The translations under genes were made by a program, and so were the position numbers. A model generated the notes under the pieces. The model saw only the letters and a program-made list of their open reading frames with translations, made no database searches and had not been told where the DNA came from. From an uncultured Acidobacteriota bacterium (GTDB lineage Bacteria; Acidobacteriota; Thermoanaerobaculia; Multivoradales; UBA5704): a stretch of 64,000 bases of DNA. Shown piece after piece: positions 1 to 18,200 of the stretch. Numbering within the stretch: the first letter of the stretch is position 1; each line of letters starts with the position of its first letter. The stretch spans positions 1,600,001-1,664,000 of the forward strand of contig CAVYRF010000001.1 in assembly GCA_963770895.1 (NCBI GenBank). Direction: 5' to 3'.

Positions 1-608
1 AGCCGAGCGGCGAATGCACCAGGGCGTCGAGCGGGCCGTAGGTTTCGCGGCAGAAGCACAGGTAGTTGACGACCGCGGCGTGGGTGACGGCGACGCCCTT
101 GGGCAGCCCGGTCGACCCGGAGGTGTAGAGGACGTAGGCGAGCTGGTCGCGGTCCACGGCCGGCGGCTGGTGCGGTGGATGCGTCGGGTCCGGGTCAGGC
201 AGGGGTCGGTCGAGCCGGAGGGTGGGCAGGTCCAGGTCGGCATCGCCGTCGGTGAGCAGGCAGGCGACGCCGGCGTCGCGCGCCATCCACTCGCGTCGCC
301 GGCGCGGCAGGTTGGCGTCCAGGGGCACGTAGGCGCCGCCGGCCTGGAGCACGGCGAGGAGCGCGGCGACCATGTCGGGGGAGCGGCGCAGGGAGACGCC
401 GACGCGCGCTTCCGGGCCGACGCCGTGGCGGGCGAGCTCGCGGGCCAGGCTTCCGGCGCGGTCGGCCAGCTGGCGGTAGCTCCACCGCCGGCCGCCGTGG
501 CGCACGGCGGCCGCCTCGGGGTGGCGCTCCGCCGCGGCGGCGAACAGACCGTGGACGGTGGCGTCCGGCTGCCGCCGGCGGCACGCCCCGCGGGCCCGCT
601 GCAGCAGC
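1..608. repeat. Near-identical copy of A-domain DNA at 24225-24832
   Basis: Direct alignment at offset 24224 shows about 16 mismatches over about 608 nt, counted by eye. Confidence 0.9.
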
Positions 609-1762
609 CATTCACGCTCGTCCGCGCCGACCATGCGGAGCGCACCGATGGCGGCTCCCGGCGCCGCGAGCATCGCGCCGACGGCCCCGGCCAGGCGCTC
701 GGCGAGCAGCAGCACGTAGCTCTCGGCGAACAGGCGCGGGTCGTACGCCAGGGCCGCCCGCAGCTGCCCGCCGCCGCGCACCGCGCTCAACTTGAGCGCG
801 AAGCGGTCGACGCACGCCGTGGCCGCGACCACCGCGACCGGTGCGGTTCCGTCCTCCCGGCCGCGATCGTCGAAAAACTCGAAGGCGTGGCGAAAGAAGG
901 GGAGTCCCTCGCGCACGTAGGAGTCCTGCAGATCGCGCGCCTCGTCCAGCTCGGCGGCGAAGCGCGCCGTCACCTGGCGCACGGTGGCCGCCGGTTCGGC
1001 CGTGGCGGCGAAGGGGACAAAACGCGCCAGCAGGCCGACGACGTTGCCCAGCGACTCGTAGCGGCGGCCGTCGCAGAGCACGCCGAGCGCCAGGTCGGCC
1101 GGCGCGCCGCTTGCCGCCAGCACCACCCGCCAGGCGGCGAGCAGCAGCGCCTCCGCTGCATCGGGGAGCGGCGCCAGCGGCAGGCTGCGCGGCGCAAAGC
1201 TCCCTTGCGGCGCCGGCTCCTCGCCGGGCAGCCACTCCTGGGCGCAGCGCGAGCCCTGGCGCTGCTGCCAGTGCCCGCGATGGGCGCGGGCCTCCGGCGT
1301 GTCGGCGACCTCGTTGGCCCAGGCGGCGTAGTCGGGGTATTGCGTCGGCTCGCCGGCCGGCTCGCCCGCCAGCTCGCGCCGCAGCTCGCCGGCCAAGGCG
1401 AGCAGGCCCTGCCGGTCCGCGTGGAGCGCCGGCAGCCGGAGCCGCAGCAGGTGCCCGGCCGGCTGGACGCTGAGGGAGGCGTGGACCAGGGGGCCCACCT
1501 CCCACCGTGGCGTGGCGTCCTCCGCGTCCCAGGCCACGCCGCCGTCGCCGACCACCTGGAGCGGCAGCCGCAGCCCGGGTGCCGAAGCGAACACGGTGCG
1601 CAGGATCTCCAGGCGCGCGGTGACGGCGGCGACCGCCGCGCGCACCGCCAGCGGGTCCACGGCGGCGTCGATGCGCAACGCCAGCTCGGCGCGGCCGGCC
1701 TCGCTCGTCGCGAGGTTCTGCCAGACCACGGCCTGCTGCGGCGAGAGTTGGTAGCCCTCCAC
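1..1762 (-). CDS. NRPS, partial (runs off left edge): interface-type C-like domain + adenylation domain (probably Asn)
   Basis: GTG at 1762 with AGGAG 7 nt upstream. Translates VEGYQLSPQQAVVW...LRLPALHADRQG...QYPDYAAW, then A-domain motifs LQAGGAYVPLD and YVLYTSGSTGLPKG. The A region is near-identical to the Asn A domain at 24225-24832. Not in the ORF track because there is no stop in the window. Confidence 0.88.
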   Translation of the reverse strand, partial: MEGYQLSPQQAVVWQNLATSEAGRAELALRIDAAVDPLAVRAAVAAVTARLEILRTVFASAPGLRLPLQVVGDGGVAWDAEDATPRWEVGPLVHASLSVQPAGHLLRLRLPALHADRQGLLALAGELRRELAGEPAGEPTQYPDYAAWANEVADTPEARAHRGHWQQRQGSRCAQEWLPGEEPAPQGSFAPRSLPLAPLPDAAEALLLAAWRVVLAASGAPADLALGVLCDGRRYESLGNVVGLLARFVPFAATAEPAATVRQVTARFAAELDEARDLQDSYVREGLPFFRHAFEFFDDRGREDGTAPVAVVAATACVDRFALKLSAVRGGGQLRAALAYDPRLFAESYVLLLAERLAGAVGAMLAAPGAAIGALRMVGADEREWLLQRARGACRRRQPDATVHGLFAAAAERHPEAAAVRHGGRRWSYRQLADRAGSLARELARHGVGPEARVGVSLRRSPDMVAALLAVLQAGGAYVPLDANLPRRRREWMARDAGVACLLTDGDADLDLPTLRLDRPLPDPDPTHPPHQPPAVDRDQLAYVLYTSGSTGLPKGVAVTHAAVVNYLCFCRETYGPLDALVHSPLG

Positions 1763-1766
1763 GCTG

Positions 1767-4700
1767 TCACTCCTCGGGAGCGCCGGCGGGCGCGGTCACC
1801 GGCCGCCGCCTGCTGGTGCCCAGCCTGCCGCGCGCGGCCTCGGCGTAGCGCCGCCGCTCGTGGCCGGCGAGCGCCGTGGCGGCGACTTCGCCGATGGGTG
1901 CGTCCTGCCAGGCGGGCAACCCGTCACAGACCGCCGCCAGCGCATCGAGCAGCAGCGCGGCGTGCTCGGCGTCGAAGCGGTCCTCGTCGTAGCGGATGAA
2001 GCAGTCGAGCTCGCCGCGGGCGCGCACCGTGAGCACCAGCGGGTAGCTCTCGGTGAGCCGCAGCTCCACCTCGCCGATGCGCAGCCCCGCGACCGTGGCA
2101 GCGACGGCCTGGTCCAGCGGGTAGTTCTCGAAAACGAAGAGGGTCTCGAAGAGCGGCTCGCCCGCGGGCACCTCGCTCCACGAGCGCACGCGGGGCAGCG
2201 GCGCGTGCTCGTGCCGCCGCATCTCCACCTGCTCGGCCTGGAGCCGTGCCAGCCAGGCCATCAGCGGTTCGTCGCCCGCCACCGCGACCCTCACCGGCAG
2301 GGTGTTGATGAACAGGCCCACCATCCGGTCGCTGCCCGGCAGCTCGGCCGGGCGCCCCGCGACGACGGTGCCGAAGAGCACCTCGCGGCGCTCCATGAAG
2401 TGGGCGAGAACCAGCGCCCAGGCGCCCTGCACCAGGGTGTTGAGCGTCAGCTGGCGTTCCCGGCCCAGGCGCGCCAGCCGCTCGACGGCGCCGATGTCGA
2501 TGCGGCGCTCCTGCTTGCGGTGGCTGGCGCCCGCCGCGGGTCGTCCGGCGGCGGGAGCGCGGTCGAAGCGCAGCCGGCCGCGGGCGTGCCACCCCGCCAG
2601 CCGGCGGCGCCAGTAGCGTTCGGCCGCGCCCAGGTCGCGCCGACGCAGCCAGTCGACGTAGCCGCGAAACGGCGGCGCCGGCGCCGCCTGCAATCCGCTG
2701 CCCTCCAACGCCGCCGCGTAGCCGGTGAAGACGTCGGCGAGGACCAGACCGTTCGACCAACCGTCGAGGATCAGGTGGTGGCTGGTCCAGACCAGGCGCC
2801 AGGCGTCGCCGGCCGTGCGCACCAGGTGGAGCCGCAACAGCGGCGCCGCCGCCAGGTCGAAGCCCCGCACCCGGTCGTCGGCGAGCAGGCGCTCCCAGCG
2901 GCCGGCCAGTTGCGCGGCGTCCAGGCCGCGCCAATCGTGGCTCGCCAGCGGCACGGTCGCCTGGTGGTGGACCCGCTGCAGCGGCTCGCCCGCGCCGCTC
3001 CAGTCGAACGCGGTGCGCAGCGCCGGGTGGCGCGCCACGGCGCCCTGCCAGGCCCGCGTCAGGGCCTGCACGTCGAGCGCCCCGTCGATGCTGCAGGTGA
3101 GCTGCACGACGTAGAGGCCGGGCTCGCCGCGGTGCAGCACCTCGAACAGGACGCCCTGTTGCAGCGGCGAAAGTGCGTAGGCGTCCTCGCTCTCCGCTCC
3201 CTCCACCCAGCCGCCGCGCGGCGCCGCGTCGGGCCGGCTCGCCTCGGCCAGCCGCCGCAGCTCGCCGACGAAGCCCGCGGCCAGCGCCGCGACCGTCGAG
3301 CGGTCGTACAGGTTGCGGCTGAACGCCCAGGCCGCCCGCAGGCGCCCGCCGGCGACGCGGGCGTTGACCTGGAAGAGGTGGGTGAGCCGGCCGCGCTCGT
3401 CCTGCGGCGAGCCGATCGGCTCGTCCGCGAGGTCGAACAGGGGTGCCTCGCCCAGCGCCCGGTCGAGCTGTCCCAGGTAGTTGAAGCTCACCTGCGCCGG
3501 CGGGCGCTCGCGCAGCGCGGCTGCCACGTCGCTGTGCGGCCGGCCGTAGCGCAGCAGACCGTAGCCCAGGCCCTGGCGCGGCAGCCGGCGCAGCGACTCC
3601 CGGACGGCGCGCACGGCGTCCAGGGCATCTCCGGCCGCTGGCAGGTCGAGCGCCAGCGGCGCCCGCACGGTGAACCAGCCGACCGTGCGCGAGACGTCCA
3701 TCCCGTCGAGGTCGGCGCGGCCGTGCCATTCGCGGTCGACCACCAGCGTGCGCTCGCCCGTCCAGGCGGCGAAGGCGCGGGCGAGCGCGGCCAGCAGCAC
3801 GGCGTCGATCGCGCCGTCCCAGGTCTCGGCGGCGCCGCGCAGCAGGGCGGCGGTCTCGTCGGCGGCAAGCTCGGTTTCGACCGTCTCGCCGCCGGCCACG
3901 CGGTCGTCGCCGCCGGGATGGTCGACCGGCAGCGGGCGCACCGCCCGGCCGCTTTCCCCCAGCCAGTAGGTCATCTCCGCCGTCACCGCGGGCGACCCGG
4001 CGTGGCGGGCGAGCGTTTCGGCCCAGGCGCGGAAGGAGGCGGTCTTCGCCGCGAGACGCGCCGGCGCGCCGCCCAGGAGCTGGCGGCAGGCCGTCTGCAG
4101 GTCGTCGAGCAGGACGCGCCACGACACCCCGTCCACCGCCAGGTGATGCACGGCCACCATCAGGCGCCGGCCGCGCGCGCCGAGGTCGAATGCGGCGGCG
4201 CGCAGGAGCGGCCCGCGGCCGAGGTCGAGGCTCGCCTGGACGGCGCGGGCGCACGCCGTGAGCGCCCGGCCCTGCCGCGCCTCGCCCAGCCCGGCCAGGT
4301 CGATCTCGCACAGCGCGGCGCGTTCGCCCGCCGGCGCATGGGCCTGCCGCCAGCCCGCCGCGCCGGGCGCGAAGCGCAGGCGCAGGGCGTCGTGGTGTGC
4401 CAGCAGGTGGTCGAGCCCCCGGCGCAGCACCGCGGCGCCCACCGGCGCCGCCAGGCGCAGCAGCACAGCCTGGTTCCAGTGGCTGGGGTTGGGCGGCGCG
4501 GTGTCGAAAAACCAGCACTGGACAGGCGTCAGCGGCACCGGCCCCTGGACGGCTCCCTGCTCGGCGGCGGCGGCCGGCGTGGCGGCGCTGCCGGTGACAG
4601 CCGCATTGGCGGCCATGGCGGCGAGCGCCGCGACGGTGGGGCTGTGGAACAGGTCTCCGGGCGTCAGCAGGATCCCCGCCTGGCGGGCACGCGCGACGAT

Positions 4701-7388
4701 CTGCACGCTCACGATCGAGTCTCCCCCCAGGCGGAAGAAGTTGTCTTCGACGCCCACGCGCGGCAGGCGCAGCACGCCGGCCCAGATCTGCGCCAGCGTC
4801 TGTTCGACCGGGGTGCGCGGCGCCACGTAGCCGGCGGCGGCCGGCGCCGGAGCGGGGAGCGCCCGGCGGTCCACCTTGCCATTGGCGGAGAGCGGCAGCC
4901 GCGGCAGGACGACGCAGGTATCCGGCAGCATGTGGGCCGGCAGCTGCAGCGCCAGGTGCTCGCCGAGCTCCGCCGCCGCGAGGGCCGCCCCTGGCGCCGC
5001 CGCCACCCAGGCCACCAGCCGCCCCTCGAGCTTGGCCACCGCCGCGGCCGCCACCCGCGGGTGGCGGCGCAGGGCGCTCTCGATCTCGCCCAGCTCGATG
5101 CGGAAGCCGCGGATCTTGACCTGACCGTCCTGGCGCCCGAGGAACTCAAGGGCGCCGTCGAGCCGCCAGCGGGCCAGATCGCCGGTGCGGTAGAGGCGCG
5201 CGCCGGGAGCGGCGGCAAAAGGATGCGGCAGGAAGCGCTCGGCCGTCAGGTCGCCACGCCCCAGGTAGCCGCGCGCCAGCCCGGCGCCGCCGACGTACAG
5301 CTCCCCCGCGGCGCCCGCCGGCGCGGGCTCCAGCCGGGAGTCCAGCACCCAGACCTCGGCGTTGGCGATGGGGCGGCCGATGGGGACGCTCTCCAGACGC
5401 TCGTCCCCGGGCAACAGCTCGTGGGCGGTGCAGCCGACCACCGTCTCGGTCGGGCCGTATTCGTTGATCAACCGCCGCCCGCGCCGCCAGCCCAGCCAGG
5501 CGACGGCGCCGCGCCCCAGCGCCTCGCCGCCGATCACCACCACGCGCTCGCCCAGCTCGTCGGCCGAGAGCAGCTGGGCGAGCGCCTCCAGGTGCGCCGG
5601 GGTGAGCTTGAGCAGCGCCGGCCCGCCGGGTTGGCGGAGGGCGGCGGCGAGCGCCTCGATCCCATCTGCCAGAAGCGTCACCGCGCGGCCCGCCAGCAGC
5701 GGCCCCCAAAGGCTGGTCACGGTCAGGTCGAAGCCCAGCGGCGAGCTCACCGCGGCGTCCAGGGCGCCGTAGGCGTCGCGGCACCAGAGCAGGTAGTTGA
5801 CGACGCCGCCGTGGGTCACCGCGACGCCCTTGGGGCGGCCGGTCGAGCCCGAGGTGTACAGGACATAGGCCAGGCTGTCGGCGGTCGCCGCCACCGCCGG
5901 CGGCGCCGGCGGGCAATCGCTCGCCGCCGCCGTCTCCTCCAGGTCCAGGCGCAGGGCCGGCAGCCCGAGATCCGCGCCGTCTCCGTCGCCGCTGAGGACC
6001 AGGGCGACGCCCGCGTCGCGCGCCATCCACTCGCGCCGCGCGCGCGGCAGGGTGCCGTCCAGCGGGACGTAGGCGCCACCCGCCTTGAGTACCGCGAGCA
6101 GCGCCACGATCATCTCCGGCGAGCGGCTGGCGGCGACTCCGACGCGCGACTCCGCGCCGGCGCCGCGGCGCACCAGCTCGCGGGCCAGGCCGTTGGCGCG
6201 CCGATCGATGTCGCCAAAGCTCCACTCCTGTCCGCCGCGGCGCACCGCCGCCGCCTCAGGCCGCCGGCGCGCCGCGGCCTCGAACAGGCCGTGCAGGGTG
6301 GCGGCGGGGTCGCGCTCCACCCGCGCTCCCGCCGCCTGCGCCGCCAGCCACCGGCGCTCGCCGGCGCCGGCGTCGCCGCCGGCAAACCGCTCGAGCAGCC
6401 AGCCGGCGCCGCGGGCGTCGAAGGCTTCCGGGTCGTAATAGAGCGTCGCCCAGGAGCGCTCGGGGGTCCGCACCACGGTCAGGCCGAGCTTCCAATCCTC
6501 GGCGAAACAGTAGAGGTCGACCAGCTCCGGCCCCTGCCAATCGATGCCCTCCCAGCCGATGGGGCGCCGCGCCGCGCCGGCCGGCGATCGTGGCGCCGGC
6601 GGCGATGTCGGCGCCGCGCCGGCCGGCGCCCCGTTGCACGGTCCGAGCGTGTGCCGCAGCTCGTCGAACTCGCGCCCCGGCGTCACCGCCGCGATCGCCG
6701 GGGCCGGCTCGCCGGTGAGCCGCGCCAGCAGCTCCTGCCAGCGCCCCAGGCCGGCCGCCGCGGCGGCCGCCGGCAGCTCGGCCGACGCCGTGGCGATGCG
6801 CTCGCTGCGGGTATCGCGTTCGAGCGGCAGGGTGACGGACCCGGCCGGCTCGGCGGCGGCAGCCGGCCGCCCCTCCTGGTGCAGCCATTCGGAGTACTGG
6901 AGGTGCTGCACCACGTCGGCACCAGGAGGGCTCCCGGCGCAGCAGCCGGCGACGTCCGCCAGCAGGATGCGCAGCGAGTCGCTGTCGGCGGCGAGCGCCG
7001 GCAGGGTGACGACCAGGATGGACGCCGCGCCCTGCCCGGCAGCGTGCGCCCAGCAGGCGCGCAGCAGCGGACCGGCGGCAAAGTCGAACGGCGCCGCCCG
7101 TTCCTCGGCGAGCAAGCGCGGCAGTGCGGCGGCGGCGTCCGCCTCCCGCCAGGCGAAGCTGCCGGCGGCGTGGATCACCTGCATCGGCTCGCTGCGCCCG
7201 GTGGGGACCACGAAGGTGGTGCGCAGCATCTCGTGGCGCTCGACGGCGAACGCGAGGGCGCGGCGCAGCGCCGGCGCGTCGACGCCGCCGGGCAGCCGCA
7301 CCGCGGCCTGCGCGCGGTGCGCTTCGCGATGGCGCCAGGCCCACAGCCGTGCCTGGCGCGGCGAGGCGCGGAACGCTTGCCCGGCCAT
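1767..7388 (-). CDS. NRPS: I(interface)-A(Asn)-T-E-C
   Basis: N-terminal FRASPRQARLW and LPALAAD in place of HHxxxDG. A motifs YTSGSTGRPKG and NEYGPTE, specificity code read as DLTKVGEVGK (Asn). T is LGGDSI, E is HHLAVDGVSW, terminal C is HHLILDGWS. Confidence 0.93.
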   Translation of the reverse strand: MAGQAFRASPRQARLWAWRHREAHRAQAAVRLPGGVDAPALRRALAFAVERHEMLRTTFVVPTGRSEPMQVIHAAGSFAWREADAAAALPRLLAEERAAPFDFAAGPLLRACWAHAAGQGAASILVVTLPALAADSDSLRILLADVAGCCAGSPPGADVVQHLQYSEWLHQEGRPAAAAEPAGSVTLPLERDTRSERIATASAELPAAAAAAGLGRWQELLARLTGEPAPAIAAVTPGREFDELRHTLGPCNGAPAGAAPTSPPAPRSPAGAARRPIGWEGIDWQGPELVDLYCFAEDWKLGLTVVRTPERSWATLYYDPEAFDARGAGWLLERFAGGDAGAGERRWLAAQAAGARVERDPAATLHGLFEAAARRRPEAAAVRRGGQEWSFGDIDRRANGLARELVRRGAGAESRVGVAASRSPEMIVALLAVLKAGGAYVPLDGTLPRARREWMARDAGVALVLSGDGDGADLGLPALRLDLEETAAASDCPPAPPAVAATADSLAYVLYTSGSTGRPKGVAVTHGGVVNYLLWCRDAYGALDAAVSSPLGFDLTVTSLWGPLLAGRAVTLLADGIEALAAALRQPGGPALLKLTPAHLEALAQLLSADELGERVVVIGGEALGRGAVAWLGWRRGRRLINEYGPTETVVGCTAHELLPGDERLESVPIGRPIANAEVWVLDSRLEPAPAGAAGELYVGGAGLARGYLGRGDLTAERFLPHPFAAAPGARLYRTGDLARWRLDGALEFLGRQDGQVKIRGFRIELGEIESALRRHPRVAAAAVAKLEGRLVAWVAAAPGAALAAAELGEHLALQLPAHMLPDTCVVLPRLPLSANGKVDRRALPAPAPAAAGYVAPRTPVEQTLAQIWAGVLRLPRVGVEDNFFRLGGDSIVSVQIVARARQAGILLTPGDLFHSPTVAALAAMAANAAVTGSAATPAAAAEQGAVQGPVPLTPVQCWFFDTAPPNPSHWNQAVLLRLAAPVGAAVLRRGLDHLLAHHDALRLRFAPGAAGWRQAHAPAGERAALCEIDLAGLGEARQGRALTACARAVQASLDLGRGPLLRAAAFDLGARGRRLMVAVHHLAVDGVSWRVLLDDLQTACRQLLGGAPARLAAKTASFRAWAETLARHAGSPAVTAEMTYWLGESGRAVRPLPVDHPGGDDRVAGGETVETELAADETAALLRGAAETWDGAIDAVLLAALARAFAAWTGERTLVVDREWHGRADLDGMDVSRTVGWFTVRAPLALDLPAAGDALDAVRAVRESLRRLPRQGLGYGLLRYGRPHSDVAAALRERPPAQVSFNYLGQLDRALGEAPLFDLADEPIGSPQDERGRLTHLFQVNARVAGGRLRAAWAFSRNLYDRSTVAALAAGFVGELRRLAEASRPDAAPRGGWVEGAESEDAYALSPLQQGVLFEVLHRGEPGLYVVQLTCSIDGALDVQALTRAWQGAVARHPALRTAFDWSGAGEPLQRVHHQATVPLASHDWRGLDAAQLAGRWERLLADDRVRGFDLAAAPLLRLHLVRTAGDAWRLVWTSHHLILDGWSNGLVLADVFTGYAAALEGSGLQAAPAPPFRGYVDWLRRRDLGAAERYWRRRLAGWHARGRLRFDRAPAAGRPAAGASHRKQERRIDIGAVERLARLGRERQLTLNTLVQGAWALVLAHFMERREVLFGTVVAGRPAELPGSDRMVGLFINTLPVRVAVAGDEPLMAWLARLQAEQVEMRRHEHAPLPRVRSWSEVPAGEPLFETLFVFENYPLDQAVAATVAGLRIGEVELRLTESYPLVLTVRARGELDCFIRYDEDRFDAEHAALLLDALAAVCDGLPAWQDAPIGEVAATALAGHERRRYAEAARGRLGTSRRRPVTAPAGAPEE

Positions 7389-7392
7389 GGCT

Positions 7393-10300: not shown

Positions 10301-13300
10301 ATCGCGTCGCGCATCTCCTGCAGCAGGGCGCCGGTCTCCGCCGCCGTCAGCTCGACCTCGACCAGGTCGTTCGACCCCACCGTGTTGGCGCCTGCCGGAT
10401 GATCGAGCGGCAGCGGCGCGATCTGCCGCGGGGCGTCGCCGGGCGGTGCGCTTCCCGGCTCGCCGCCCTGCTGCCGGTTGCGCTCGGCCCACAGCTCGGC
10501 CCAGCGCCGGTAGGAGGCGGTCCTGGCGGGCAGCGCGACGGGCTCGCCGCGCTGCAGCTGCGCGCTGGCGGTTTCCAGGTCTTCGATCAGGATGCGCCAC
10601 GAGACCGCGTCCACCACCAGGTGGTGGATGACCAGCAGCAGGCGGCGGCCGCGCGCGCCGAGGTCGAACAGCGCGGCGCGCAGCAGCGGCCCGCTGCCGA
10701 TGTCGAGGCCGGCCTGGGTCTCGCGGCCGAGCGCGGCCAGCGCCCGGTCCTGGGCCGCGGCGTCTTGCGCGGCCAGGTCGTGCTGGGCGATGGGCGGGGT
10801 TTGCGCGGACTCGCCGGCATCGGCGCAGGTCTGCTCCCAGCCGGCGGCGCCAAGGTGAAAGCGCAGGCGCAGGGCGTCGTGGTGCGCCAGCAGCTGATCC
10901 AGGGCGCGCCGCAGGAGCACGGCGGGAAGGGGCCTGGCCAGGCGCAGCAGGATCGCCTGGTTCCAGTGGTTGGGATTGACCGCCTGGAGATCGAAGAACC
11001 ACCGCTGGATGGGGGTGAGCGGCAGCGGCCCGGCGGCGGCCTGCGGTGCCGCCGCGGGCTCCGCCGCCGCGCCGTCGGCGACGGCCGCCAGCCCGGCGAT
11101 CGTGGGATGCAGGAAGATCTGCATCGGCGTCAGCCGCAAACCGGCCTGATGCGCCCGCGCGATGATCTGGATGCTGAGGATCGAATCGCCGCCCAAGGCG
11201 AAGAAGCTGTCCTCGACTCCGACCTCCGGCAGCCGCAGCACGCCAGCCCAGATCTGCGCCAGGATCGTTTCGGTCGGCGTGCGCGGTGCGATGTGGGCGG
11301 CGGCGGCCGCCGCCGCCGCGGTGGGCTCGGGCAGCGCCCGGCGGTCCAACTTGCCATTGGCGGTGCGCGGCAGCTCCGGCAGGAAGACCAGGGCAGCGGG
11401 TAGCATGGGTTCCGGCAACGTCCGCTCCAGGTGCTCGCGCAGTGCGTCGGCGGTGAGCGCGCCGTCGGCTGCCACCCAGGCCACCAGCCGCCCCTGCCGC
11501 GCCGCCGCCGCCGCCGCCCGCACTTGCGGATGGCGCAGCAGCGCCGCCTCGATCTCGCCCGGCTCGACGCGATAGCCGCGGATCTTCACCTGGTCGTCGC
11601 GCCGGCCGAGGAACTCGAGCTGGCCGCCGGCGCCGTGGCGCGCCAGGTCGCCGGTCCGATACAGGCGCTCCCCGGCCGCGCCGCAGGGGTGCGGCACGAA
11701 CCGCTCCGCCGTCAGGTCGCCGCGGCCGACGTAGCCGCGCGCCACGCCCGCGCCGCCGGCATGGAGCTCGCCCGTCACGCCCGCCGGCAGCGGCTCCAGG
11801 TTGTGGTCCAGCACCAGGGCGATCGCGTTGGCCAGCGGGCGGCCGAGCGGCACGACGTCGCCGCCGGGCGGCGGCGGCAGGCGGCCGGCGACCACGCCCA
11901 CCGTCGTCTCGGTGGGACCGTAGTGGTTGAACACCTCGCACCGTGGTGCGAGCGCCGCGATCTGCCGCGCCAGCGCCGGCGGCAGAACCTCGCCGCCCAT
12001 CACCAGGAACCGGCGCGGCAGGCTGCGGCGCGATTGCAGCAGGGCTGCCATGTGCGACGGCACGATCTTGACCGCGTCGACGGCGTGCCGCTCCAGGTAG
12101 GCGGCGTAGCGCTCCGCGTCGGCGGCGTCGGCGCGCGGTACCAGGTGCAGCGTGCCGCCTGTCAGCAGGCTGGGAAACACCATGGTGTTGCACAGGTCTG
12201 CCGCCAGGGTCGACACCACGGCAAAGCACAGCCCCTCCGGCAAGGCCAGCAGCTCGCGCACCGCCTCGCAGTAGCTGGCGAGCGCCGCGTGCGGCACGCC
12301 GACCGCCTTGGGGGCGCCGGTCGATCCCGAGGTGAACAGCACGTAGCAGAGGTTCTCCGGCGCCGCCTCGCCTCCCTGGTGCGGCGGCGCGGCTTGCGGG
12401 CGGGGGAGCCGGGGGGCGCGGCGCTGCGGCCGGACCGCCGGCGCCAGGTCGTCGACCCAGACCAGCGGCAGGCCGGTCGCGGGCAGGCGCTCGGCCAGCG
12501 CCCGCTCGGCGACCACGCAGCGGGCTCCCGCCGCCGCCAGCTGCTCGCCCAGGCGGTCCGGCGGCGCCTGCTCGTCGAGGGGGGCGTAGGCGCCGCCGGT
12601 CTTGAGGATGCCCAGCATGCCCGCCACCCACGCCGGCGAGCGCGAGGCGAGCAGACCGGCCACGGCGTCGGGCCCCAGGGCGTGCTCGGCCGCCAGGCGG
12701 CGGGCGATGGCGGCAGCCCAGGCGTCCAGCTCGCCGTAGGTGAGCGCGCCGGCGTCGCCGGCGACGGCGACGCGATCGGGGGTGCGCAAGGCCTGCTCCT
12801 CGATCCGCCGGTGCAGCGGCCGGCGGTCGGCGCCGGGCCGCTGCGGGCCGGCCGCCGCCGCCAGCGCCGCCCGGCGATCCTCGTCGCCGAGCAGCCGCAT
12901 GCCGGCGCCGGGCGCCGCGGGGGTGCACGCCGCGCTCGCGGCGAGGGTTTGCAGGCAGCGCGCAAAGAGCGCCGCGGCCTCGCCGTCGACGCGGCCGCGG
13001 TCGTGGCGCAGCTCCGCCCGCAGCGCGCCGCCGGAGCGGACGGCGAGGAGCTTGAGCGCGGCGCCCGCGGGGCCGGCCTGCACCCGCTCCACGGCAAAGC
13101 GGGCGCCGGCGCTGGCGATCGCCGCGGGGAGCTCCAGGTACTCGAATTCGTACGCTGCCGCGGCGGCGTTCGGCTCCTCCAGCGGCAGGTGTTCCACCAG
13201 CCCGGCAAGGGCGTCGAGCCGGACCGCGATGGCGGCGGCGAGAGCGCTGAAACTGCCATCGAGATCCAGCTCCAGGCAGAGCGGCAGGCGCCGCGCATAG

Positions 13301-14202
13301 GCCCCGAACGCCGCCCCCAGCTGCTCGTCGCGGCCGCTCGCCACGTAGGCGAGCCGCAACGCGCCGCCGTCGCCGCCGCCGCCGCCGTCGAAACGCTGCA
13401 GGAGCGTCGCCCAGACCGCGAGCAGCGCCGCTTCCCCGGCGGCGCCGGCACCCGCCAGGTCGAATCGCACCGTGCCGAGCAGGCCGCCGCCGGCCGGCGG
13501 CGCCGCGTCGTCCGGCTCTGCCGTGCCGCCGCGCCGCGCGCCGCGCAGCGCCGGCCGGCAGAGGGGGCGCGGCGCGATCCGCGTGTTCTCTTCCCAATAC
13601 CGCTGCGCCGCTTCGCCGGGGCCCGCCTGCCCAGCGCCGCCGGCGTCCAGCTCTTCCTGCCAGGCGGCGTAGTCGGCGTACTGGATGGCGCTCTCCGCGT
13701 CCGCGTCCGCGGCGCCGCCGTAGGCCCGCGCGATCGCACTACCCAGCAGCGACGCGGTCCTGGCGTCGGCGCAGAGTCCCGGCAGGCTGAGCAGCAGGGC
13801 GTGGCGGCCGGCTGGCAGGCGCAGCAGCCCGGCGCGCAGGGGCGGTTCCTCCGGCGGGCCGGGCGGCCGCGCCGCCTCGCTGTCGAACAGATCCGCGACC
13901 GCCGTCGCGGCGTTCGCCGCCGAGGCGGCGGTCAGGTCGCGCTCCCACCAGCTGAAGTCGGGGGCCTCGCGGAACTCCTGCAGCGGAAAGCGCAGCCCGG
14001 GGTGGTCGAGGAAGACGGCGCGCAGGATCTCCTGGCGGCCCACCACCTCCCCCAGGGCGGCGCGCAACGCGGCCGCGTCGAGAGCCCCCGCGATCTCGAG
14101 CAGGCAGACGGTGCGCGGCACGAGGTCGGGCCCGCCGCTCGCGACGCAGAGGGCGCGCTGCTGGGTCGACAGGCGGTAGCCCTGGACCAGGTCGGTGGTC
14201 AC
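7393..14202 (-). CDS. NRPS: I(interface)-A(Asp)-T-E-C-TauD (fused Fe(II)/2-oxoglutarate beta-hydroxylase)
   Basis: GTG at 14202 overlaps the upstream stop (GTGA). GYRLSTQQRAL and LPGLCAD mark the I domain. Code DLTKVGHVGK (Asp), T LGGDSI, E HHLVVDAVSW, C HHIILDGWS. The C-terminal TauD has HNE...DNMLTAHGR. Confidence 0.92.
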   Translation of the reverse strand: MTTDLVQGYRLSTQQRALCVASGGPDLVPRTVCLLEIAGALDAAALRAALGEVVGRQEILRAVFLDHPGLRFPLQEFREAPDFSWWERDLTAASAANAATAVADLFDSEAARPPGPPEEPPLRAGLLRLPAGRHALLLSLPGLCADARTASLLGSAIARAYGGAADADAESAIQYADYAAWQEELDAGGAGQAGPGEAAQRYWEENTRIAPRPLCRPALRGARRGGTAEPDDAAPPAGGGLLGTVRFDLAGAGAAGEAALLAVWATLLQRFDGGGGGDGGALRLAYVASGRDEQLGAAFGAYARRLPLCLELDLDGSFSALAAAIAVRLDALAGLVEHLPLEEPNAAAAAYEFEYLELPAAIASAGARFAVERVQAGPAGAALKLLAVRSGGALRAELRHDRGRVDGEAAALFARCLQTLAASAACTPAAPGAGMRLLGDEDRRAALAAAAGPQRPGADRRPLHRRIEEQALRTPDRVAVAGDAGALTYGELDAWAAAIARRLAAEHALGPDAVAGLLASRSPAWVAGMLGILKTGGAYAPLDEQAPPDRLGEQLAAAGARCVVAERALAERLPATGLPLVWVDDLAPAVRPQRRAPRLPRPQAAPPHQGGEAAPENLCYVLFTSGSTGAPKAVGVPHAALASYCEAVRELLALPEGLCFAVVSTLAADLCNTMVFPSLLTGGTLHLVPRADAADAERYAAYLERHAVDAVKIVPSHMAALLQSRRSLPRRFLVMGGEVLPPALARQIAALAPRCEVFNHYGPTETTVGVVAGRLPPPPGGDVVPLGRPLANAIALVLDHNLEPLPAGVTGELHAGGAGVARGYVGRGDLTAERFVPHPCGAAGERLYRTGDLARHGAGGQLEFLGRRDDQVKIRGYRVEPGEIEAALLRHPQVRAAAAAARQGRLVAWVAADGALTADALREHLERTLPEPMLPAALVFLPELPRTANGKLDRRALPEPTAAAAAAAAHIAPRTPTETILAQIWAGVLRLPEVGVEDSFFALGGDSILSIQIIARAHQAGLRLTPMQIFLHPTIAGLAAVADGAAAEPAAAPQAAAGPLPLTPIQRWFFDLQAVNPNHWNQAILLRLARPLPAVLLRRALDQLLAHHDALRLRFHLGAAGWEQTCADAGESAQTPPIAQHDLAAQDAAAQDRALAALGRETQAGLDIGSGPLLRAALFDLGARGRRLLLVIHHLVVDAVSWRILIEDLETASAQLQRGEPVALPARTASYRRWAELWAERNRQQGGEPGSAPPGDAPRQIAPLPLDHPAGANTVGSNDLVEVELTAAETGALLQEMRDAMLAALVLALAPWSGDRPLWVDVEGHGRGAFPDLDTSRTVGWFTARVPVELPATLADADAAATLAAVRETVRRALQAAGQRPAVRPQVSFNYLGQIDGQAGASAGDGALFALADEPTGPPQDERGLRTHLLQITARVSAGRLRATWTFSRNLHRRQTIAGHAARFAAELRRLAGVGSAARGLADSYPLTPLQQGILFHALHAGETGVYVEQVTCRVTGALDAAAFERAWRLVVERHPALRTACDWHGGHEPLQVVHRQVDLRVERHDWRGVPASERERRIDLFLAADRARGFDLAAAPLMRLSLLQLADDLHQAVWTNHHIILDGWSRPVVLDEMFAAYEALARGLSPSLGAVRPYRDYVAWLAGQDLGEAERFWRRRLAGFAARNRLRIDRGAGAGRATAGASDRKERRRLTAAATASLARFARERQLTVYSVLQGVWALVLAGAAGARDLVYGTVVAGRPAALPEVERMVGLFINTLPARVAVDGGEPLVPWLRRLQAEQVEMRQFEHTPLAAIQPWSELPAGEPLFDTLFVFENFPSLSRAGAELDERLQVRFTDLRGFDQNNFPLTLTVVPSDPYGCEAMYDPERFAAADVAALLDGFVRVLDEALAHPEASLAEIARTALASPCAGQGAKPMTFKLVTPKPVSLDAADLIDTAPLVPGASLPLVVRPLGPGVDLAGWAAANRDLVRAQLARHGAVLFRGFPVDPEADFEPVAETLTSPLYDENGEHHRESVSGKVYTPVAFSPAKVLLWHNENSFNHQWPGQIWFGCAVPAAAGGEMPLADSREVYRRLPARLRDRFTERGVMYIRTYRPELGLSWQKVLGTERREEAEAYCRQGRMGCEWRPGDSLRTVAVRPAVLRHPVTGESCWFNQAQHWHPSCLDPETRQSMAALFPPEDFPRNCCYGDGSPIADDDMGEILAVYRSIEVVVPWQRGDMLLVDNMLTAHGRNAYQGPRRMLVAMGDMRSF

Positions 14203-15263
14203 GGGCGCGGCTCCAGCTCGTGCTCGCCGCTCATCTGGCCCATGGCGACCAGGATCTTGCGCGGGCCGGTGAAGGGGTTGCGCGCGTGGGCGGTCATCAT
14301 GTTGTCGGCCAGCAGCACGTCGTGGCGCTGCCAGGGGGCCGCCACGGAGTTTTCGTCGTAGAGGCGGCGGATCTCGGCCACCACCTCGTCCTCGATCGCC
14401 GCGCCGTCGCCGTAGAGCACGTTGCGCGGCAGGTCGGGCGCCGCGAAGAGGGCGCGCACCGGCGCCTGCACGGCCTCCGGCAGGCAGGCGACGTGATGGA
14501 GCTGGATCTGGTTGAAGAAGAGCTTCTCGCCGGTGGCCGGGTGGCGCGCCACCGCGACCCGGCGCTGGCGGGTGGCAAGGGCGTCGCCCTTCCACTCGCA
14601 GGCGACCCCGGCGGCGCGGCAGGCCGCCTCGACCTCGCGCCGGTCGCCGGTGCGGAAGAACTCCTGCCAGCCGACGTCGATGCCGGGGATGAAGTTGCGC
14701 ACGTAGAGCAGACCCTGGCGCTCGAAGCGATCGGCCAGCTCGGCCGGCAGCCGGCGGTAGATGGCGCGGCAGTCGGCGACGACCGTCTCGCCGCCCGACT
14801 GCGGCGGCTGCACGCAGTAAAACCAGATCATCAGCGGCCAGCGGTCCATGTGCGAGCTTTCGTTGTGGAAGAGGATCGGCTGGTCGGGCGGGTAGGGGGT
14901 CGACTGGTAGATGCGCCCGGAAACCGTGCCGCGCGGCAGGTCGCCGTACTCTTCGAAAAGCGGCCCGAAGGCGGCGGCCAGCTGCTCGAAGGCGGCGGCG
15001 GAGCCGACGGCGAAGCCGCGAAACAGGATCGCTCCGTGCCGCGCCAGGCGCTGTCGCAGCACGTCGAGGTGCTGGCGCACGAAGCCGCCCAGGTCGACGT
15101 CGTCGAGGGCCGGTTGGAGCACCAGCGGCAGGGGATTGCCGGGGTGCAGGGTCGACTCGCGGGCGAGTTGCGCGGTCGAGACCTGGACCGCCTTGCGGCG
15201 TGCCGCCGAGCGCGGCGCGGGAGCGGCGGCGGGCGCCGCGTCAGGCGAATCTTTCGGTTGCAT
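14199..15263 (-). CDS. TauD/SyrP-like Fe(II)/2-oxoglutarate dioxygenase (NRPS-associated beta-hydroxylase)
   Basis: HGAILFRGF, facial triad HNE (FHNESSH) plus DNMMTAHAR, and FFNQ motif. ATG at 15263 lies inside the 3' end of the upstream NRPS. Confidence 0.9.
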   Translation of the reverse strand: MQPKDSPDAAPAAAPAPRSAARRKAVQVSTAQLARESTLHPGNPLPLVLQPALDDVDLGGFVRQHLDVLRQRLARHGAILFRGFAVGSAAAFEQLAAAFGPLFEEYGDLPRGTVSGRIYQSTPYPPDQPILFHNESSHMDRWPLMIWFYCVQPPQSGGETVVADCRAIYRRLPAELADRFERQGLLYVRNFIPGIDVGWQEFFRTGDRREVEAACRAAGVACEWKGDALATRQRRVAVARHPATGEKLFFNQIQLHHVACLPEAVQAPVRALFAAPDLPRNVLYGDGAAIEDEVVAEIRRLYDENSVAAPWQRHDVLLADNMMTAHARNPFTGPRKILVAMGQMSGEHELEPRP

Positions 15264-18200
15264 GGGGGAAGCTCTCCGCGGCGCTGAAAGCGCACGCCAG
15301 ACGGTCAAGACGGATCTCGGGGGATGCCACGGCGCGCTCGATCACCGCCGCGTAGGCGGCGGCGAAGCGCCGCACAGTGGCCGGTACGAAGAGGTCGGGG
15401 TTGAAGACCCAGGTCTGGTGGAGGCGCCGCTGGTCGTCCTCGTGGGGGAAGAGCGCCAGGTCGAAGCGCGAGGTCTCCTGCGCCGCGTCCTCGACCTCGA
15501 CGGCGAGGTCGGCCAGCGCCAAGGCCGGCCGCTCGGCGTTCTGCAGCACGAACAGCAGGTCGAACAGCGGCGTGCGCGCCGGATCGCGCCGCGGCCGCAG
15601 CGCGCTGACCAGCTGGTCGAACGAGACGTCCTGGTGGTCGTAGGCGTCCAGCGTGGTTTCGCGCACCCGCCGCAGCAGCTCGCGGAAGGTGGGGTTTCCC
15701 GACAGGTCGGTGCGCAGCACCAGGACGTTGACAAAGAAGCCGATCAGACCTTCGATCTCCGTCCGGTTGCGGTTGGCGACGTCGGTGCCGATCACCAGGT
15801 CCTGCTGGCCGGTCAGCGCGAAGAGAAAGGCCAGCAAAGCCGCCAGCAGGGTCATGAAGAGCGTCACGCCTGCGCCGCGGCTGAGCGCCGCGAGGGCCGC
15901 GGCCAGCTCCGCCGGCAAGGCTGCCGCGTGGCGCGCGCCGCGGTGGGTCTGCACCGGCGGGCGCGGCCGATCGAGCGGCAGGTCCAGCGCCGCCGGCGCG
16001 CCCGCCAGCCGCCGCTGCCAGTAGGCAGTCTGCCGCCGCAGCTCCTCTCCCTGCAGCCACTGCCGCTGCCACGCCGCGAAGTCCGCGTACTGGATCGGCA
16101 GCTCGGGCAGCCGCGGCGGCGCGCCGCCGCGGGCGCGCTCGTAAAGATGCGTCACCTCGCGCACCAGCACGCCGATCGACCAGCCGTCGGCGACGACGTG
16201 GTGCATGGTGAGCAGACACGTGTGCTCGGCGCCGTCCAGCCGCAGCAGGGTGGCGCGCCACAGCGGCCCGCGCGCCAGGTCGAAGGGGAGTGCCGCCTCC
16301 TGGGCGGCGCGGTGCGCCGTCTCGCGCCGCCGCGCCCGCTCGCCGAGCCCGGCCAGGTCGACGACGGCGACGGGGATCGCCGGCTGCGGCGCGATCTCCT
16401 GGCTGGGCAGGCCGTCGAGGACCGGAAAGCGGGTGCGCAGCACCTCGTGGCGCAGGGCGAGATGGCGCAGGCTCAGGCGCAGCGCCGCGACGTCCAGGGC
16501 GCCGCGCATGCGCAGGGCGATCGGCATGTTGTAGAACGGGCTGCCGGGCTGCAGCTGATCGACGAACCAGAGGCGCTGCTGCGACAGCGACAGCGGCAAC
16601 GGCCGGTCGCGCGGTGCCCGTTCGATCGGCGGCGCGGCGGCGCGCGGCGACTGCCGGGCCAGCTCCACCTGCGCCGCCAGGTCCGCCACCGTCGGGTGCT
16701 CGAAGAGCAGCCGCAGCGGCAGCTCCAGCCCCAGGGCGCCGCGCAGCCGTGCGACCGCCTGCGCCGCCAGCAGCGAGTGCCCGCCAAGGGCGAAGAAGTC
16801 GTCGTCGACACCGACCCGCGGCAGGCGCAGCACCTCGGCCCAGACTCCTGCCAGGATCTCCTCGACGGGCGAGCGCGGCGCCGCCAGCGCCGCCGCCGCG
16901 GGCGACGCCGGCGCCGGCTCCGGCAGCGCCCGGCGATCCACCTTGCCGGCGGCGGTCAGCGGCAGGTGCGGCAGGAACACGAATGCCGCCGGCACCATGG
17001 CGTCGGGCAGCAGCTGGGCGACGTGCCGGCGCAGGCGCTCCGCCATGCCGGGCGCGGCCGGGTCTGCCGGCGGCTCGCCGGCAGCGACCAGCCGCACCCA
17101 GGCCACCAGCCGCTCGCCGTCCCCGTCGCCGGCGGCCGCCACCACCGCCTGGCGGACCGCCGGGTGCTGTTCGATCGCCGCTTCGATCTCGGCGGGCTCG
17201 ATGCGATGCCCGCGCACCTTGACCTGGCCGTCGAGGCGGCCGGCGAGCTCCAGCTCGTGCCGCGCCGTCCAGCGCGCCCGATCGCCCGTGCGGTACATGC
17301 GGCTGCCCGGCTGGTCGCCGAACGGCTCCGGCAGGAAGCGCTCCGCCGTCGCCGCCGGCTGGTCCAGGTAGCCGCGGGCGACGCCGGCTCCGGCGATGAA
17401 CAGCTCGCCGTAGACGCCGACCGGCAGCGGCGCCCAGCGCTCGTCGAGCACGTGGACGCGGACGTTGGCGATCGGCCCGCCGATCGGCGGCGGCTCGCCG
17501 GCGGCGAGCGGCCGCGAGATGGTGGCGCAGACCGTGGTTTCGGTGGGTCCGTAGGCGTTGAGCATCCGCCGCCCGCGCGCCCAGCGGTCGGCGAGCGCCG
17601 GCGGGCAGCGCTCGCCGGCCACCACCAGGGTGGCGAGCCGCGGCAGCGGGATCGCTTCCGGTGCGGGCGGCGCCGGCAGCAGGTGGAGCACCGACGGCAC
17701 CAGCGTGGCGGTCTGCACGGCGGCGCCGGCCAGCAGGTCGTACAGTGCCGCACCCGCGCCCAGCGCTTCAGGCGGCGCCAGGATCAGGCGGGCGCCGCAG
17801 GCGAGCGCCGTCGTCCACTCGGAAACCGCGGCGTCGAAGGCCGGCGAAGCGAACAGCAGCACGGCGCTGTCCGGCGTCACCGTGAAGGCCGCGATCTGGG
17901 CGAGCGCCAGGTTGCAGACGCTGCGGTGGGTGACGGCCACGCCCTTGGGCGTCCCCGTCGAACCCGAGGTGTAGATCACGTAGGCGAGGTTGTCCGGCGC
18001 CGCCGCCGGCGGCAGATCTGCGGAGGGCTGGGCGGCGGCGCGCCTGCCCAGGCCGTCCAGGGCGACGACGGGCACCGGCGGGGCGGGGAACGTGGCGCGC
18101 AGCGACTCCTGGGTCAGCAGCAGGGCCGCGCCGCTGTCGTGCAAGGCGCGGGCGAGCCGCGGGCGCGGATGCGCCGGGTCGAGCGGCACGTAGGCGCCGC

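Follow-up and report, generated by a model that had tools for sequence, protein, structure and literature searches.

A predicted acidobacterial nonribosomal peptide synthetase line with three consecutive interface-domain modules and a split, a fused and no adjacent hydroxylase

Gene organization at the locus

The locus described here lies in the left part of a 64,000-nucleotide stretch of DNA (the window, to which all positions without a prefix refer) from an uncultured Acidobacteriota bacterium with an 8.16-Mb genome (assembly GCA_963770895.1; positions 1,600,001 to 1,664,000 of the 2.24-Mb contig CAVYRF010000001.1, hereafter contig C1). Going by its nearest adenosylhomocysteinase matches (81-85% identity), whose names are of this group, the host is probably an acidobacterium of the class Thermoanaerobaculia. 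The subject of this account is a predicted nonribosomal peptide synthetase (NRPS) in which three successive proteins open with a condensation-like domain assigned here to the interface family, at junctions where a TauD-type β-hydroxylase is in turn a separate protein, fused to the upstream protein, and absent. What is shown here from sequence is the order of the domains, their motifs and family membership, the statistics on synteny and the specificity codes. The left 30 kb of the window has a G+C content of 70-77%, and its gene string was picked out by codon-position G+C together with Pfam matches. The genes run on the minus strand from about 31.7 kb in the window to 9.4 kb past its left edge, in the order polyketide synthase (PKS; KS-AT-ACP-TE, 27842-31738, Pfam), glycosyltransferase (about 26229-27500, Pfam), g0 (about 26232-15241), a stand-alone TauD gene (15263-14199), g1 (14202-7393), g2 (7388-1767) and g3 (start at 1762, end 9.4 kb past the window edge). 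The ATG of the TauD gene falls within the end of g0, giving a 23-nucleotide (nt) overlap, the TauD stop and the g1 start share GTGA, and 4 nt separate stop from start both between g1 and g2 and between g2 and g3. With each of these boundaries an overlap or a 4-nt gap, we read the genes as one operon, which is predicted to encode an eight-module, lipopeptide-type NRPS. Its g0 protein has a starter condensation (C) domain followed by adenylation (A), thiolation (T) and further C domains in the order A-T-C-A-T-C-A-T-C; g1 comprises a C-like domain, A, T, an epimerization (E) domain, C and TauD; g2 comprises a C-like domain, A, T, E and C; and g3 reads I-A-T-C-A-T-C-A-T, with I for the interface-type domain, before ending in a β-propeller and a Peptidase_S9 domain.

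All features of the three junctions lie on the minus strand, and the C-like domains I1, I2 and I3 were called with the interface-family model described below. At the first junction, g0 ends in an LCL-like C domain with an intact HHVVADGWS motif (C4, 15244..16608; 342 bits against Pfam Condensation), followed by a separate open reading frame (ORF) for a TauD/TfdA-family Fe/2-oxoglutarate (2OG) dioxygenase (14199..15263; ATG at 15263, stop at 14201-14199; PF02668, E 1.2e-49). The g1 protein starts at a GTG (14202) with I1 (12802..14202), in which LPGLCAD (13765-13785) occupies the position of the catalytic HHxxxDG motif, and continues with the A domain (11326..12801), T domain (11071..11283; GGDSI type, PF00550) and E domain (9766..11028; HHLVVDAVS) of module 4, the last grouping with E2 in a domain tree, far from the C domains. 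At the second junction, module 5 is served by a DCL-like C domain located in g1 (C5, 8416..9762; 309 bits; HHIILDGWS), which is followed by a TauD domain that makes up the last ~300 residues of g1 (7393..8370, residues 2100-2393 of the maximal ORF; stop at 7395-7393; PF02668, E 2.3e-42), after which g2 opens with a shortened domain, I2 (6285..7388; LPALAAD at 6984-7004), ahead of the module 5 A domain (4854..6284), T domain (4599..4811; GGDSI type, PF00550) and E domain (3204..4556; HHLAVDGVS). At the third junction, the terminal C domain of g2, again DCL-like, serves module 6 (C6, 1767..3197; stop at 1769-1767; 262 bits; HHLILDGWS), and g3 opens at a GTG (1762) with I3 (545..1762; LPALHAD at 1415-1435) and the module 6 A domain (1..544 in the window, continuing past its edge). 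No TauD lies between g2 and g3, whose stop and start are the 4 nt apart given above. Modules 4, 5 and 6 are therefore each spread over two proteins, with the serving C domain carried by the upstream one.

A sequence-only reading of this DNA had placed the three degenerate motifs in N-terminal C-like domains of successive genes and had described the hydroxylase as separate, fused and absent at junctions 1, 2 and 3; motifs and coordinates proved exact, on the minus strand, and the PF02668 matches together with the 4-nt gap between g2 and g3 bear out the hydroxylase arrangement. It had further stated that each upstream protein ends in an intact C domain, which holds for g0 and g2, whereas g1 ends in TauD, with its intact C domain just before.

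Assignment of the N-terminal domains to the interface family

Against the Pfam Condensation model, I1, I2 and I3 score weakly (55.2, 51.1 and 63.6 bits, all above the cut-off of 30.6 bits) compared with the eight other C or E domains scanned in the window (172-353 bits). A profile of the three domains, searched against 1.84 billion representative proteins, matches C domains generally (57,075 proteins at E <= 0.001). Among 1,128 C-like domain matches in 270 database proteins, 52 reached at least 120 bits (range 120-617; the window's own g1 and g2 are included), and every one of these 52 begins no more than 30 residues from the protein N terminus and carries an LP[AS]LCAD-like motif, the family consensus being LPALCAD; ordinary C domains in the same 270 proteins scored at most 115 bits. 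Two hidden Markov models (HMMs), one of 113 family members and one of 89 ordinary C domains, with the window sequences in neither, gave family-minus-ordinary differences of +170, +113 and +215 bits for I1, I2 and I3, whereas all 15 ordinary C or E domains tested scored negative (-27 to -334 bits). This independent contrast argues for homology over the whole domain rather than a chance motif.

A maximum-likelihood tree of C domains (52 rows, with foreign family members thinned to one in three and ordinary C domains represented by a selection) placed all interface-type rows in one clade (support 99 in the Shimodaira-Hasegawa-like approximate likelihood ratio test, SH-aLRT), including I1 to I3 and the N-terminal domains of the cyanochelin proteins CcsI and CcsL. 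In the same tree, C4 grouped with LCL-like C domains, among them the one preceding the fused TauD of CcsFGH; C5 and C6 grouped with a C domain located after an E domain, and C5 with the C domain downstream of the E-containing CcsL. The AlphaFold2 model of I1 has a condensation fold (mean predicted local distance difference test score, pLDDT, 83.8; predicted template modeling score, pTM, 0.86), with query-normalized TM-scores of 0.58-0.72 to solved C domains and the X domain that recruits cytochromes P450. Neither the I domains nor the TauDs matched a specific NCBIfam model, and a sequence-profile search of solved structures returned ordinary C domains and no evident interface-domain entry. One solved structure, 8z0q, is called a "special condensation domain" and, according to its title, is HtmB2-CT.

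On sequence and predicted fold, we assign I1 to I3 as interface domains, that is, members of the condensation superfamily that have lost HHxxxDG and stand at the N terminus before A-T. The interface-domain identity proposed in the sequence-only reading thus gains support from both the tree and the independent HMMs, and no clustering with ordinary or decayed C domains was seen in the tree. Loss of the catalytic motif, low Pfam scores and the partial absence of the C-terminal lobe of I2 would also be expected of independently decayed, functionless C domains left over from gene fission. We consider this extremely unlikely, given the family-specific motifs common to more than 100 domains from several phyla, the single supported clade and the confidently folded model of I1.

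Substrate codes of the line

Ten specificity positions were read from each A domain through an HMM alignment, with positions following a reference numbering. The line then gives DLTKVGEVGK for module 1 (Asn type), DAWFGGLVVK for module 2 (near the Leu code), DASTVAAVCK for module 3, DLTKVGHVGK for module 4 (Asp type), DLTKVGEVGK for modules 5 and 6 (Asn type), DISMVGEVCK for module 7 and DTEDIGTVVK for module 8, one change from the Lys code. Two checks support the read-out: the eight modules of clovibactin (NZ_CP106952.1) gave codes that fit the peptide published for it, Phe-Leu-Lys-Ser-Asn-Ala-Leu-Leu (PMC10245560), and both CcsI and CcsL gave an Asp-type code. Processed in the same way, the module 4 code differs at one position from the Asp code of CcsI and CcsL, and the module 5 code at one position from that of the clovibactin Asn module. 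The codes and domain calls agree with the earlier statement that the three interface modules are ordered Asp, Asn, Asn, with E domains after modules 4 and 5.

The A domains behind other interface-family domains show a similar bias. Among the 52 high-scoring database domains, 43 of 50 decodable codes were of Asp or Asn (Asx), Gln or Glu (Glx), or His type, the Gln, Glu and His assignments being provisional. At junctions where a TauD directly precedes a family domain (61 decodable of 69, see below), the counts were 39 Asp, 9 Asn, 3 Gln, 5 incomplete and 5 other, and in relatives of the host 18 of 19 codes were of Asx, Glx or His type, with all 14 at sites without a TauD being Asx or Glx. Because the codes are almost exclusively for Asp, Asn, Gln, Glu and His, the domain appears tied to side-chain chemistry rather than to generic docking.

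The two TauD hydroxylases

The two TauDs of the window are 46% identical to each other, and the H-x-E and distal His columns, which bind iron, are invariant in the TauD alignments (one of these with 7 sequences); both enzymes therefore look catalytically competent. In a tree of 72 TauD rows, from which two thirds of the Asp-preceding and undecoded rows had been left out, two clades were recovered. Clade A (31 rows, 24 fused and 7 stand-alone) holds the CcsFGH domain and both window TauDs (support 99), and clade B (41 rows, 37 of them stand-alone) holds CcsK. Within clade A, 7 of the 9 Asn-preceding TauDs share a 12-row subclade with the fused window TauD (support 99). The stand-alone window TauD belongs to a subclade of 19 rows (support 100) whose enzymes precede Asp and are mostly fused, the CcsFGH domain among them. 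Clade-specific HMMs agree with the tree and assign CloD, the clovibactin enzyme, to clade B. The junction 1 TauD thus appears to be a split-off member of the fused type, and the word "split," used of it in the sequence-only reading, is apt since the stand-alone protein groups with fused ones in the tree with CcsFGH and CcsK, as the HMM check also indicates.

The clade bears on the expected stereochemistry. The fused hydroxylase type is described as giving the 3S and the stand-alone type the 3R configuration (PMC12628792), from which we infer that a clade A hydroxylase followed by an E domain would give (2R,3S), or D-erythro, isomers. An E domain follows at 5 of 29 clade A junctions, compared with 8 of 24 clade B junctions, counting those with enough downstream sequence.

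Distribution of interface-family domains with and without TauD

To place the three junctions in context, we scanned one genome per species with the TauD alignment, which recovered 80 loci, mostly from Acidobacteriota and Cyanobacteria, with 100 TauD copies. Where at least 1.5 kb of downstream sequence was present (93 copies), 69 TauDs were followed by an interface-family domain (>=120 bits, within 600 nt); of the remaining 24, eight preceded a weaker C-like domain and 16 none. The 69 TauDs so paired were fused to the upstream protein in 37 cases, stand-alone in 29 and cut by a contig end in three, and TauD lay directly upstream of 69 of the 73 family domains within the 80 loci. Two TauD copies occurred at 18 of the 80 loci and three at one.

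A second sample was selected by the I domain, namely 20 sites with full-length resemblance to I3 from relatives within the same order, together with 2.5 kb upstream. All 20 are family members by the HMM contrast (+142 to +295 bits). A TauD is found at the seam in five of them and 1.7 kb away in one, with none in the other 14; 13 of these 14 domains begin 60-260 nt after an ordinary C domain. In the host genome itself, 7 of the 326 C-like pieces belong to the interface family. A TauD lies at the seam of three, namely I1, I2 and a domain at 3.72 Mb of contig C2 (C2:~3724543-3725960) that follows a fused TauD. The other four lack one: I3, one before an Asn-type A domain on contig C1 at 0.47 Mb (C1:470999-472304), and two before Gln-type A domains on contig C2 at 1.78 Mb (C2:1777445-1778741) and 3.92 Mb (C2:3923065-3924349). 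Because I domains without an adjacent TauD are frequent, finding the domain is not enough to indicate a hydroxylase at that seam. In four of five relatives checked, the contig with such an orphan I domain also has a TauD beside another I domain, which suggests that lines with surplus I domains are common.

Two stand-alone TauDs of the host (C2:1818068 and C2:3960560, ~1.82 and 3.96 Mb) fall in the tree with TauDs that precede Gln modules in other genomes and lie 25-40 kb from the two Gln modules with I domains, which hints that these may be β-hydroxy-Gln modules. On the same contig, the protein at C2:1772940-1775942 (L012:2940-5942, plus strand) has A and T domains after ~370 residues without a Pfam match, and is flanked by an NRPS whose last domain is a C domain and by a gene opening with an interface-family domain.

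These counts bear on two claims of the sequence-only reading, that interface-guided Asn hydroxylation and tandem cassettes are unusual, and neither is upheld by the genomes. An Asn-type A domain follows 9 of the 61 decodable junctions with TauD, and the TauDs of seven of these nine fall in the subclade of the fused window TauD; repeated TauD copies within one locus are likewise recurrent, as are I domains without one. In the literature searched, interface domains were found described only for β-OH-Asp siderophores, and no structure of one was found. Asn and tandem cassettes are therefore unusual only relative to published descriptions.

The same data allow two other explanations to be weighed. 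If the interface domain were mainly a docking adaptor between the terminal C domain and the next A-T, with hydroxylases as optional passengers, the N-terminal position of all 52 high-scoring domains, the short distance from an ordinary C domain in 13 of 14 TauD-less cases in relatives, and the four of seven host domains without a TauD at the seam would all be expected. A generic dock, however, should stand before any kind of A domain, whereas the codes behind it are almost only Asx, Glx and His; moreover, TauD homologs occur elsewhere on the same contig in four of five relatives checked, and the Gln-group TauDs of contig C2 lie near the two Gln modules with I domains. We therefore regard the docking explanation as improbable. 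Alternatively, the TauDs could hydroxylate free Asp and Asn, with the A domains loading the products and the C-like domains having no part in hydroxylation. Hydroxylases of free amino acids (AsnO type) exist in this superfamily, and the codes cannot tell Asn from β-OH-Asn. Nevertheless, one TauD is covalently fused to the synthetase, both lie exactly at C//I seams, the arrangement is preserved for 69 of 93 TauDs spanning several phyla, and related enzymes are described as acting on carrier-bound residues (in vitro for hypeptin, PMC8252469; as proposed for potashchelin, PMC7100376), which together make a free-acid route very unlikely.

Module 6 and the predicted product

Module 6 differs from modules 4 and 5 in having neither a TauD at its seam nor an E domain. 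Its I3 is intact and has the highest family score of the three (+215 bits), yet the A-T-C that follows is repeated elsewhere in the line: over 2,966 nt, A1-T1-C2 of g0 (C2 here being a C domain; window ~21887-24849, g0 nt 1702-4664) and A6-T6 plus most of C7 of g3 (window 625 leftwards to L001:15676-18625, g3 nt 1138-4087) are 97.4% identical. The repeated stretch begins at about residue 380 of g3, its edge lying at the I3/A6 linker, and the C2 and C7 domains are near-identical in the C-domain tree. The repeat points to a recent duplication or gene conversion.

For the line as a whole, we propose that the C//I seam is the place where a Fe(II)/2-oxoglutarate, TauD-type β-hydroxylase would be held, through binding to the interface domain, as a separate, translationally coupled protein at junction 1 and as the C-terminal domain of g1 at junction 2. 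L-Asp on the T domain of module 4 and L-Asn on that of module 5 would be β-hydroxylated while tethered; the E domains would then epimerize the α-carbon and DCL-type C domains pass the chain on, giving D-β-OH-Asp4 and D-β-OH-Asn5. Module 6, with Asn and no E domain, would either be served in trans by a TauD or be left unmodified. Taken together (an eight-module line, hydroxylation at C//I seams giving these two residues, and Asn6 in either state), we consider this account probable. We infer the carrier-bound character of the hydroxylation, its order relative to epimerization, the stereochemistry and the binding of TauD to the I domain from the arrangement of domains and from the systems compared below.

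Several observations weigh against this account. The 80 surveyed loci were chosen by TauD and are hence tilted toward TauD/I pairs, while an adjacent TauD is missing for four of seven I domains in the host genome and 14 of 20 in its relatives. Among the three domains, erosion is greatest in I2, which adjoins the fused TauD: of its 368 residues, the HMM covers only positions 7-186, 222-295 and 368-415 of 463 (about two thirds), its C-terminal lobe being partly lost. The A-T-C of module 6 is a copy of a module 1/2 stretch that has no I domain, so that the module 6 carrier is not a specialized one. Membership in the interface family rests on the cyanochelin proteins and on synteny (antiSMASH 8 is stated to carry curated interface-domain profiles). 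Finally, a search of 30 relatives for an orthologous cluster found none (best 39% identity), and conservation of this line therefore cannot be used as evidence.

For residue 6, we consider an unmodified Asn to be about an even prospect, and hydroxylation in trans by one of the two TauDs to be possible, though somewhat short of that. Asn6 would stay unmodified if I3 were a bystander, kept only because the split between C and I is needed for the proteins to cooperate. The empty junction 3, the recent copying of the A-T-C behind I3 from the I-less module 1 stretch, and a second Asn module of the host with an I domain (contig C1, ~471 kb), whose nearest TauD homolog is at least about 590 kb away, all fit a bystander. 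On the other hand, I3 is the best fit of the three to the family model, single-contig clusters with more I domains than TauDs recur in four of five relatives checked, the A domain behind an orphan I domain is in every case of Asx or Glx type (14 of 14), and one 2OG hydroxylase is described as serving two adjacent Asn modules in hypeptin (PMC8252469).

A broader possibility, which we advance only tentatively, is that the interface domain acts as a tag on Asx, Glx and His modules and that a hydroxylase acts at any module so tagged, in which case the line would make three consecutive β-OH-Asx residues (D-Asp, D-Asn and L-Asn). Residues 4 and 5 would then be of the rare D-erythro type, because both TauDs belong to the fused-type clade yet precede E domains. 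Were this so, an interface domain alone would predict β-hydroxylation, including in β-OH-Gln and β-OH-Glu modules, which are frequent in acidobacterial genomes and were not found described in the literature searched.

Comparison with characterized systems

The closest parallel is cyanochelin B, in which the hydroxylase fused to CcsFGH precedes CcsI and the stand-alone CcsK precedes the E-containing CcsL; each of the two modules loads Asp, and two β-OH-Asp residues are described in the product (PMC12628792). In the reference record (AP017310.1, a plasmid of Leptolyngbya sp. NIES-3755), the N-terminal domains of CcsI and CcsL score 176 and 203 bits and carry LPALCAD and LPSLCAD. Thus, both clusters combine a fused and a stand-alone TauD, each followed by a protein opening with an interface-family domain and A-T, and the E domain of CcsL resembles the arrangement in modules 4 and 5. 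In contrast, both cyanochelin modules are for Asp and the product is a siderophore, CcsK is a clade B enzyme while the two window TauDs are of clade A, and the window has three I modules in succession, two of Asn type and one without a hydroxylase.

Interface domains and fused Asp β-hydroxylase cassettes (cupriachelin and potashchelin) were reportedly defined by Reitz et al. in 2019. The arrangement C-TauD // C-like-A-PCP (PCP, peptidyl carrier protein) is shared by the window and the proteobacterial lipid siderophores, among them potashchelin, for which ...C-TauD // C-like-A(Asp)-PCP is described and carrier-bound hydroxylation proposed (PMC7100376). A plasmid of Eleftheria terrae likewise has C-TauD // I-A, with an ALAAD motif and an Asp-type A domain. 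Unlike the proteobacterial systems, which are described for Asp and His and for siderophores, the window has Asn modules, E domains behind clade A hydroxylases, a PKS, glycosyltransferases and no thioesterase on the last NRPS.

Formation of 3-hydroxy-Asn on an NRPS by a TauD-type or other 2OG enzyme also has precedents. HynE of hypeptin is described as hydroxylating carrier-bound Asn on two consecutive modules in vitro (PMC8252469), and CloD is assigned to the D-3-OH-Asn of clovibactin (PMC10245560). In clovibactin, however, the Asn module is internal to CloA and has no interface-family domain, and CloD belongs to clade B. CloA (NZ_CP106952.1, L148:7036-26553) has two tandem C-like domains before its Asn A domain (residues 3895-4815), the second of which keeps HHIVAD, has DRRS for DGWS, and scores 203 bits against the family model and 358 against the ordinary-C model. 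This second domain occupies the position expected of an interface domain, in a module whose Asn is hydroxylated by CloD.

A further analogy is the X domain of glycopeptide NRPSs, which also has a condensation fold without condensation activity and recruits oxygenases in trans to a carrier-bound substrate. The X-domain/OxyB complex of teicoplanin (4tx3_B) ranks fifth among structural matches of the I1 model (query-normalized TM-score 0.66, ~22% identity). The X domain differs in recruiting cytochromes P450 rather than 2OG enzymes, and the I domain is not of that family. The two also differ in position, the X domain closing the last module and the I domain opening a protein.

In our view the finding is a sound annotation and concerns a device already known, here in a new host and on a new substrate, rather than a new mechanism or kind of system. 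A pipeline equipped with profiles for interface domains and hydroxylases should flag this line. Split, fused and hydroxylase-free cassettes in one operon, on Asp and Asn, nevertheless make it a natural test bench for whether an interface domain binds the hydroxylase, whether a hydroxylase serves a neighboring tagged module, and what the domain does where no hydroxylase is adjacent. For the prediction of structures from genomes, it matters that interface-family domains precede Asn-, Gln- and Glu-type modules with about the same ease as Asp modules, and that most of them in this lineage have no adjacent hydroxylase.

The C-terminal end of g3

In place of a thioesterase, the last ~640 residues of g3 (C1:1590552-1592465, minus strand; L001:8552-10465 in locus coordinates) comprise a PD40-like β-propeller and a Peptidase_S9 hydrolase, whose GASYGG serine and Asp/His motifs are intact. 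A word-index search for this S9-like domain on other database proteins of 2,055-6,540 residues returned none but the query, and a literature search turned up no such NRPS-S9 fusion. Stand-alone homologs in relatives are 45-54% identical, and the host genome has a paralog on contig C2 (51% identical). The domain may be a new chain-release or editing domain.

Surroundings of the cluster

The cluster is surrounded by the KS-AT-ACP-TE PKS, two GT4-type glycosyltransferases, an ATP-binding cassette (ABC) exporter, and a glucose-methanol-choline (GMC) oxidoreductase with a partner resembling gluconate dehydrogenase subunit 3 (window 26229-31738, minus strand, and 32054-33877, plus strand; L001:3726-8446, minus strand; L002:9559-14150, plus strand). 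No transport gene was found nearer to the cluster than the ABC exporter (32054-33877, plus strand), and two TonB-dependent receptor genes lie 15-19 kb past the end of g3. The product could be a glycolipopeptide, a siderophore or both. An eight-residue lipodepsipeptide line of the empedopeptin/plusbacin type was dropped as a candidate since the specificity codes do not fit. The right half of the window encodes CHAT-domain proteins, a Ser/Thr kinase with tetratricopeptide (TPR) repeats and an extracytoplasmic function (ECF)-type sigma factor, and the genome as a whole is very rich in NRPSs, the 326 C-like pieces mentioned above having been counted in six-frame ORFs.

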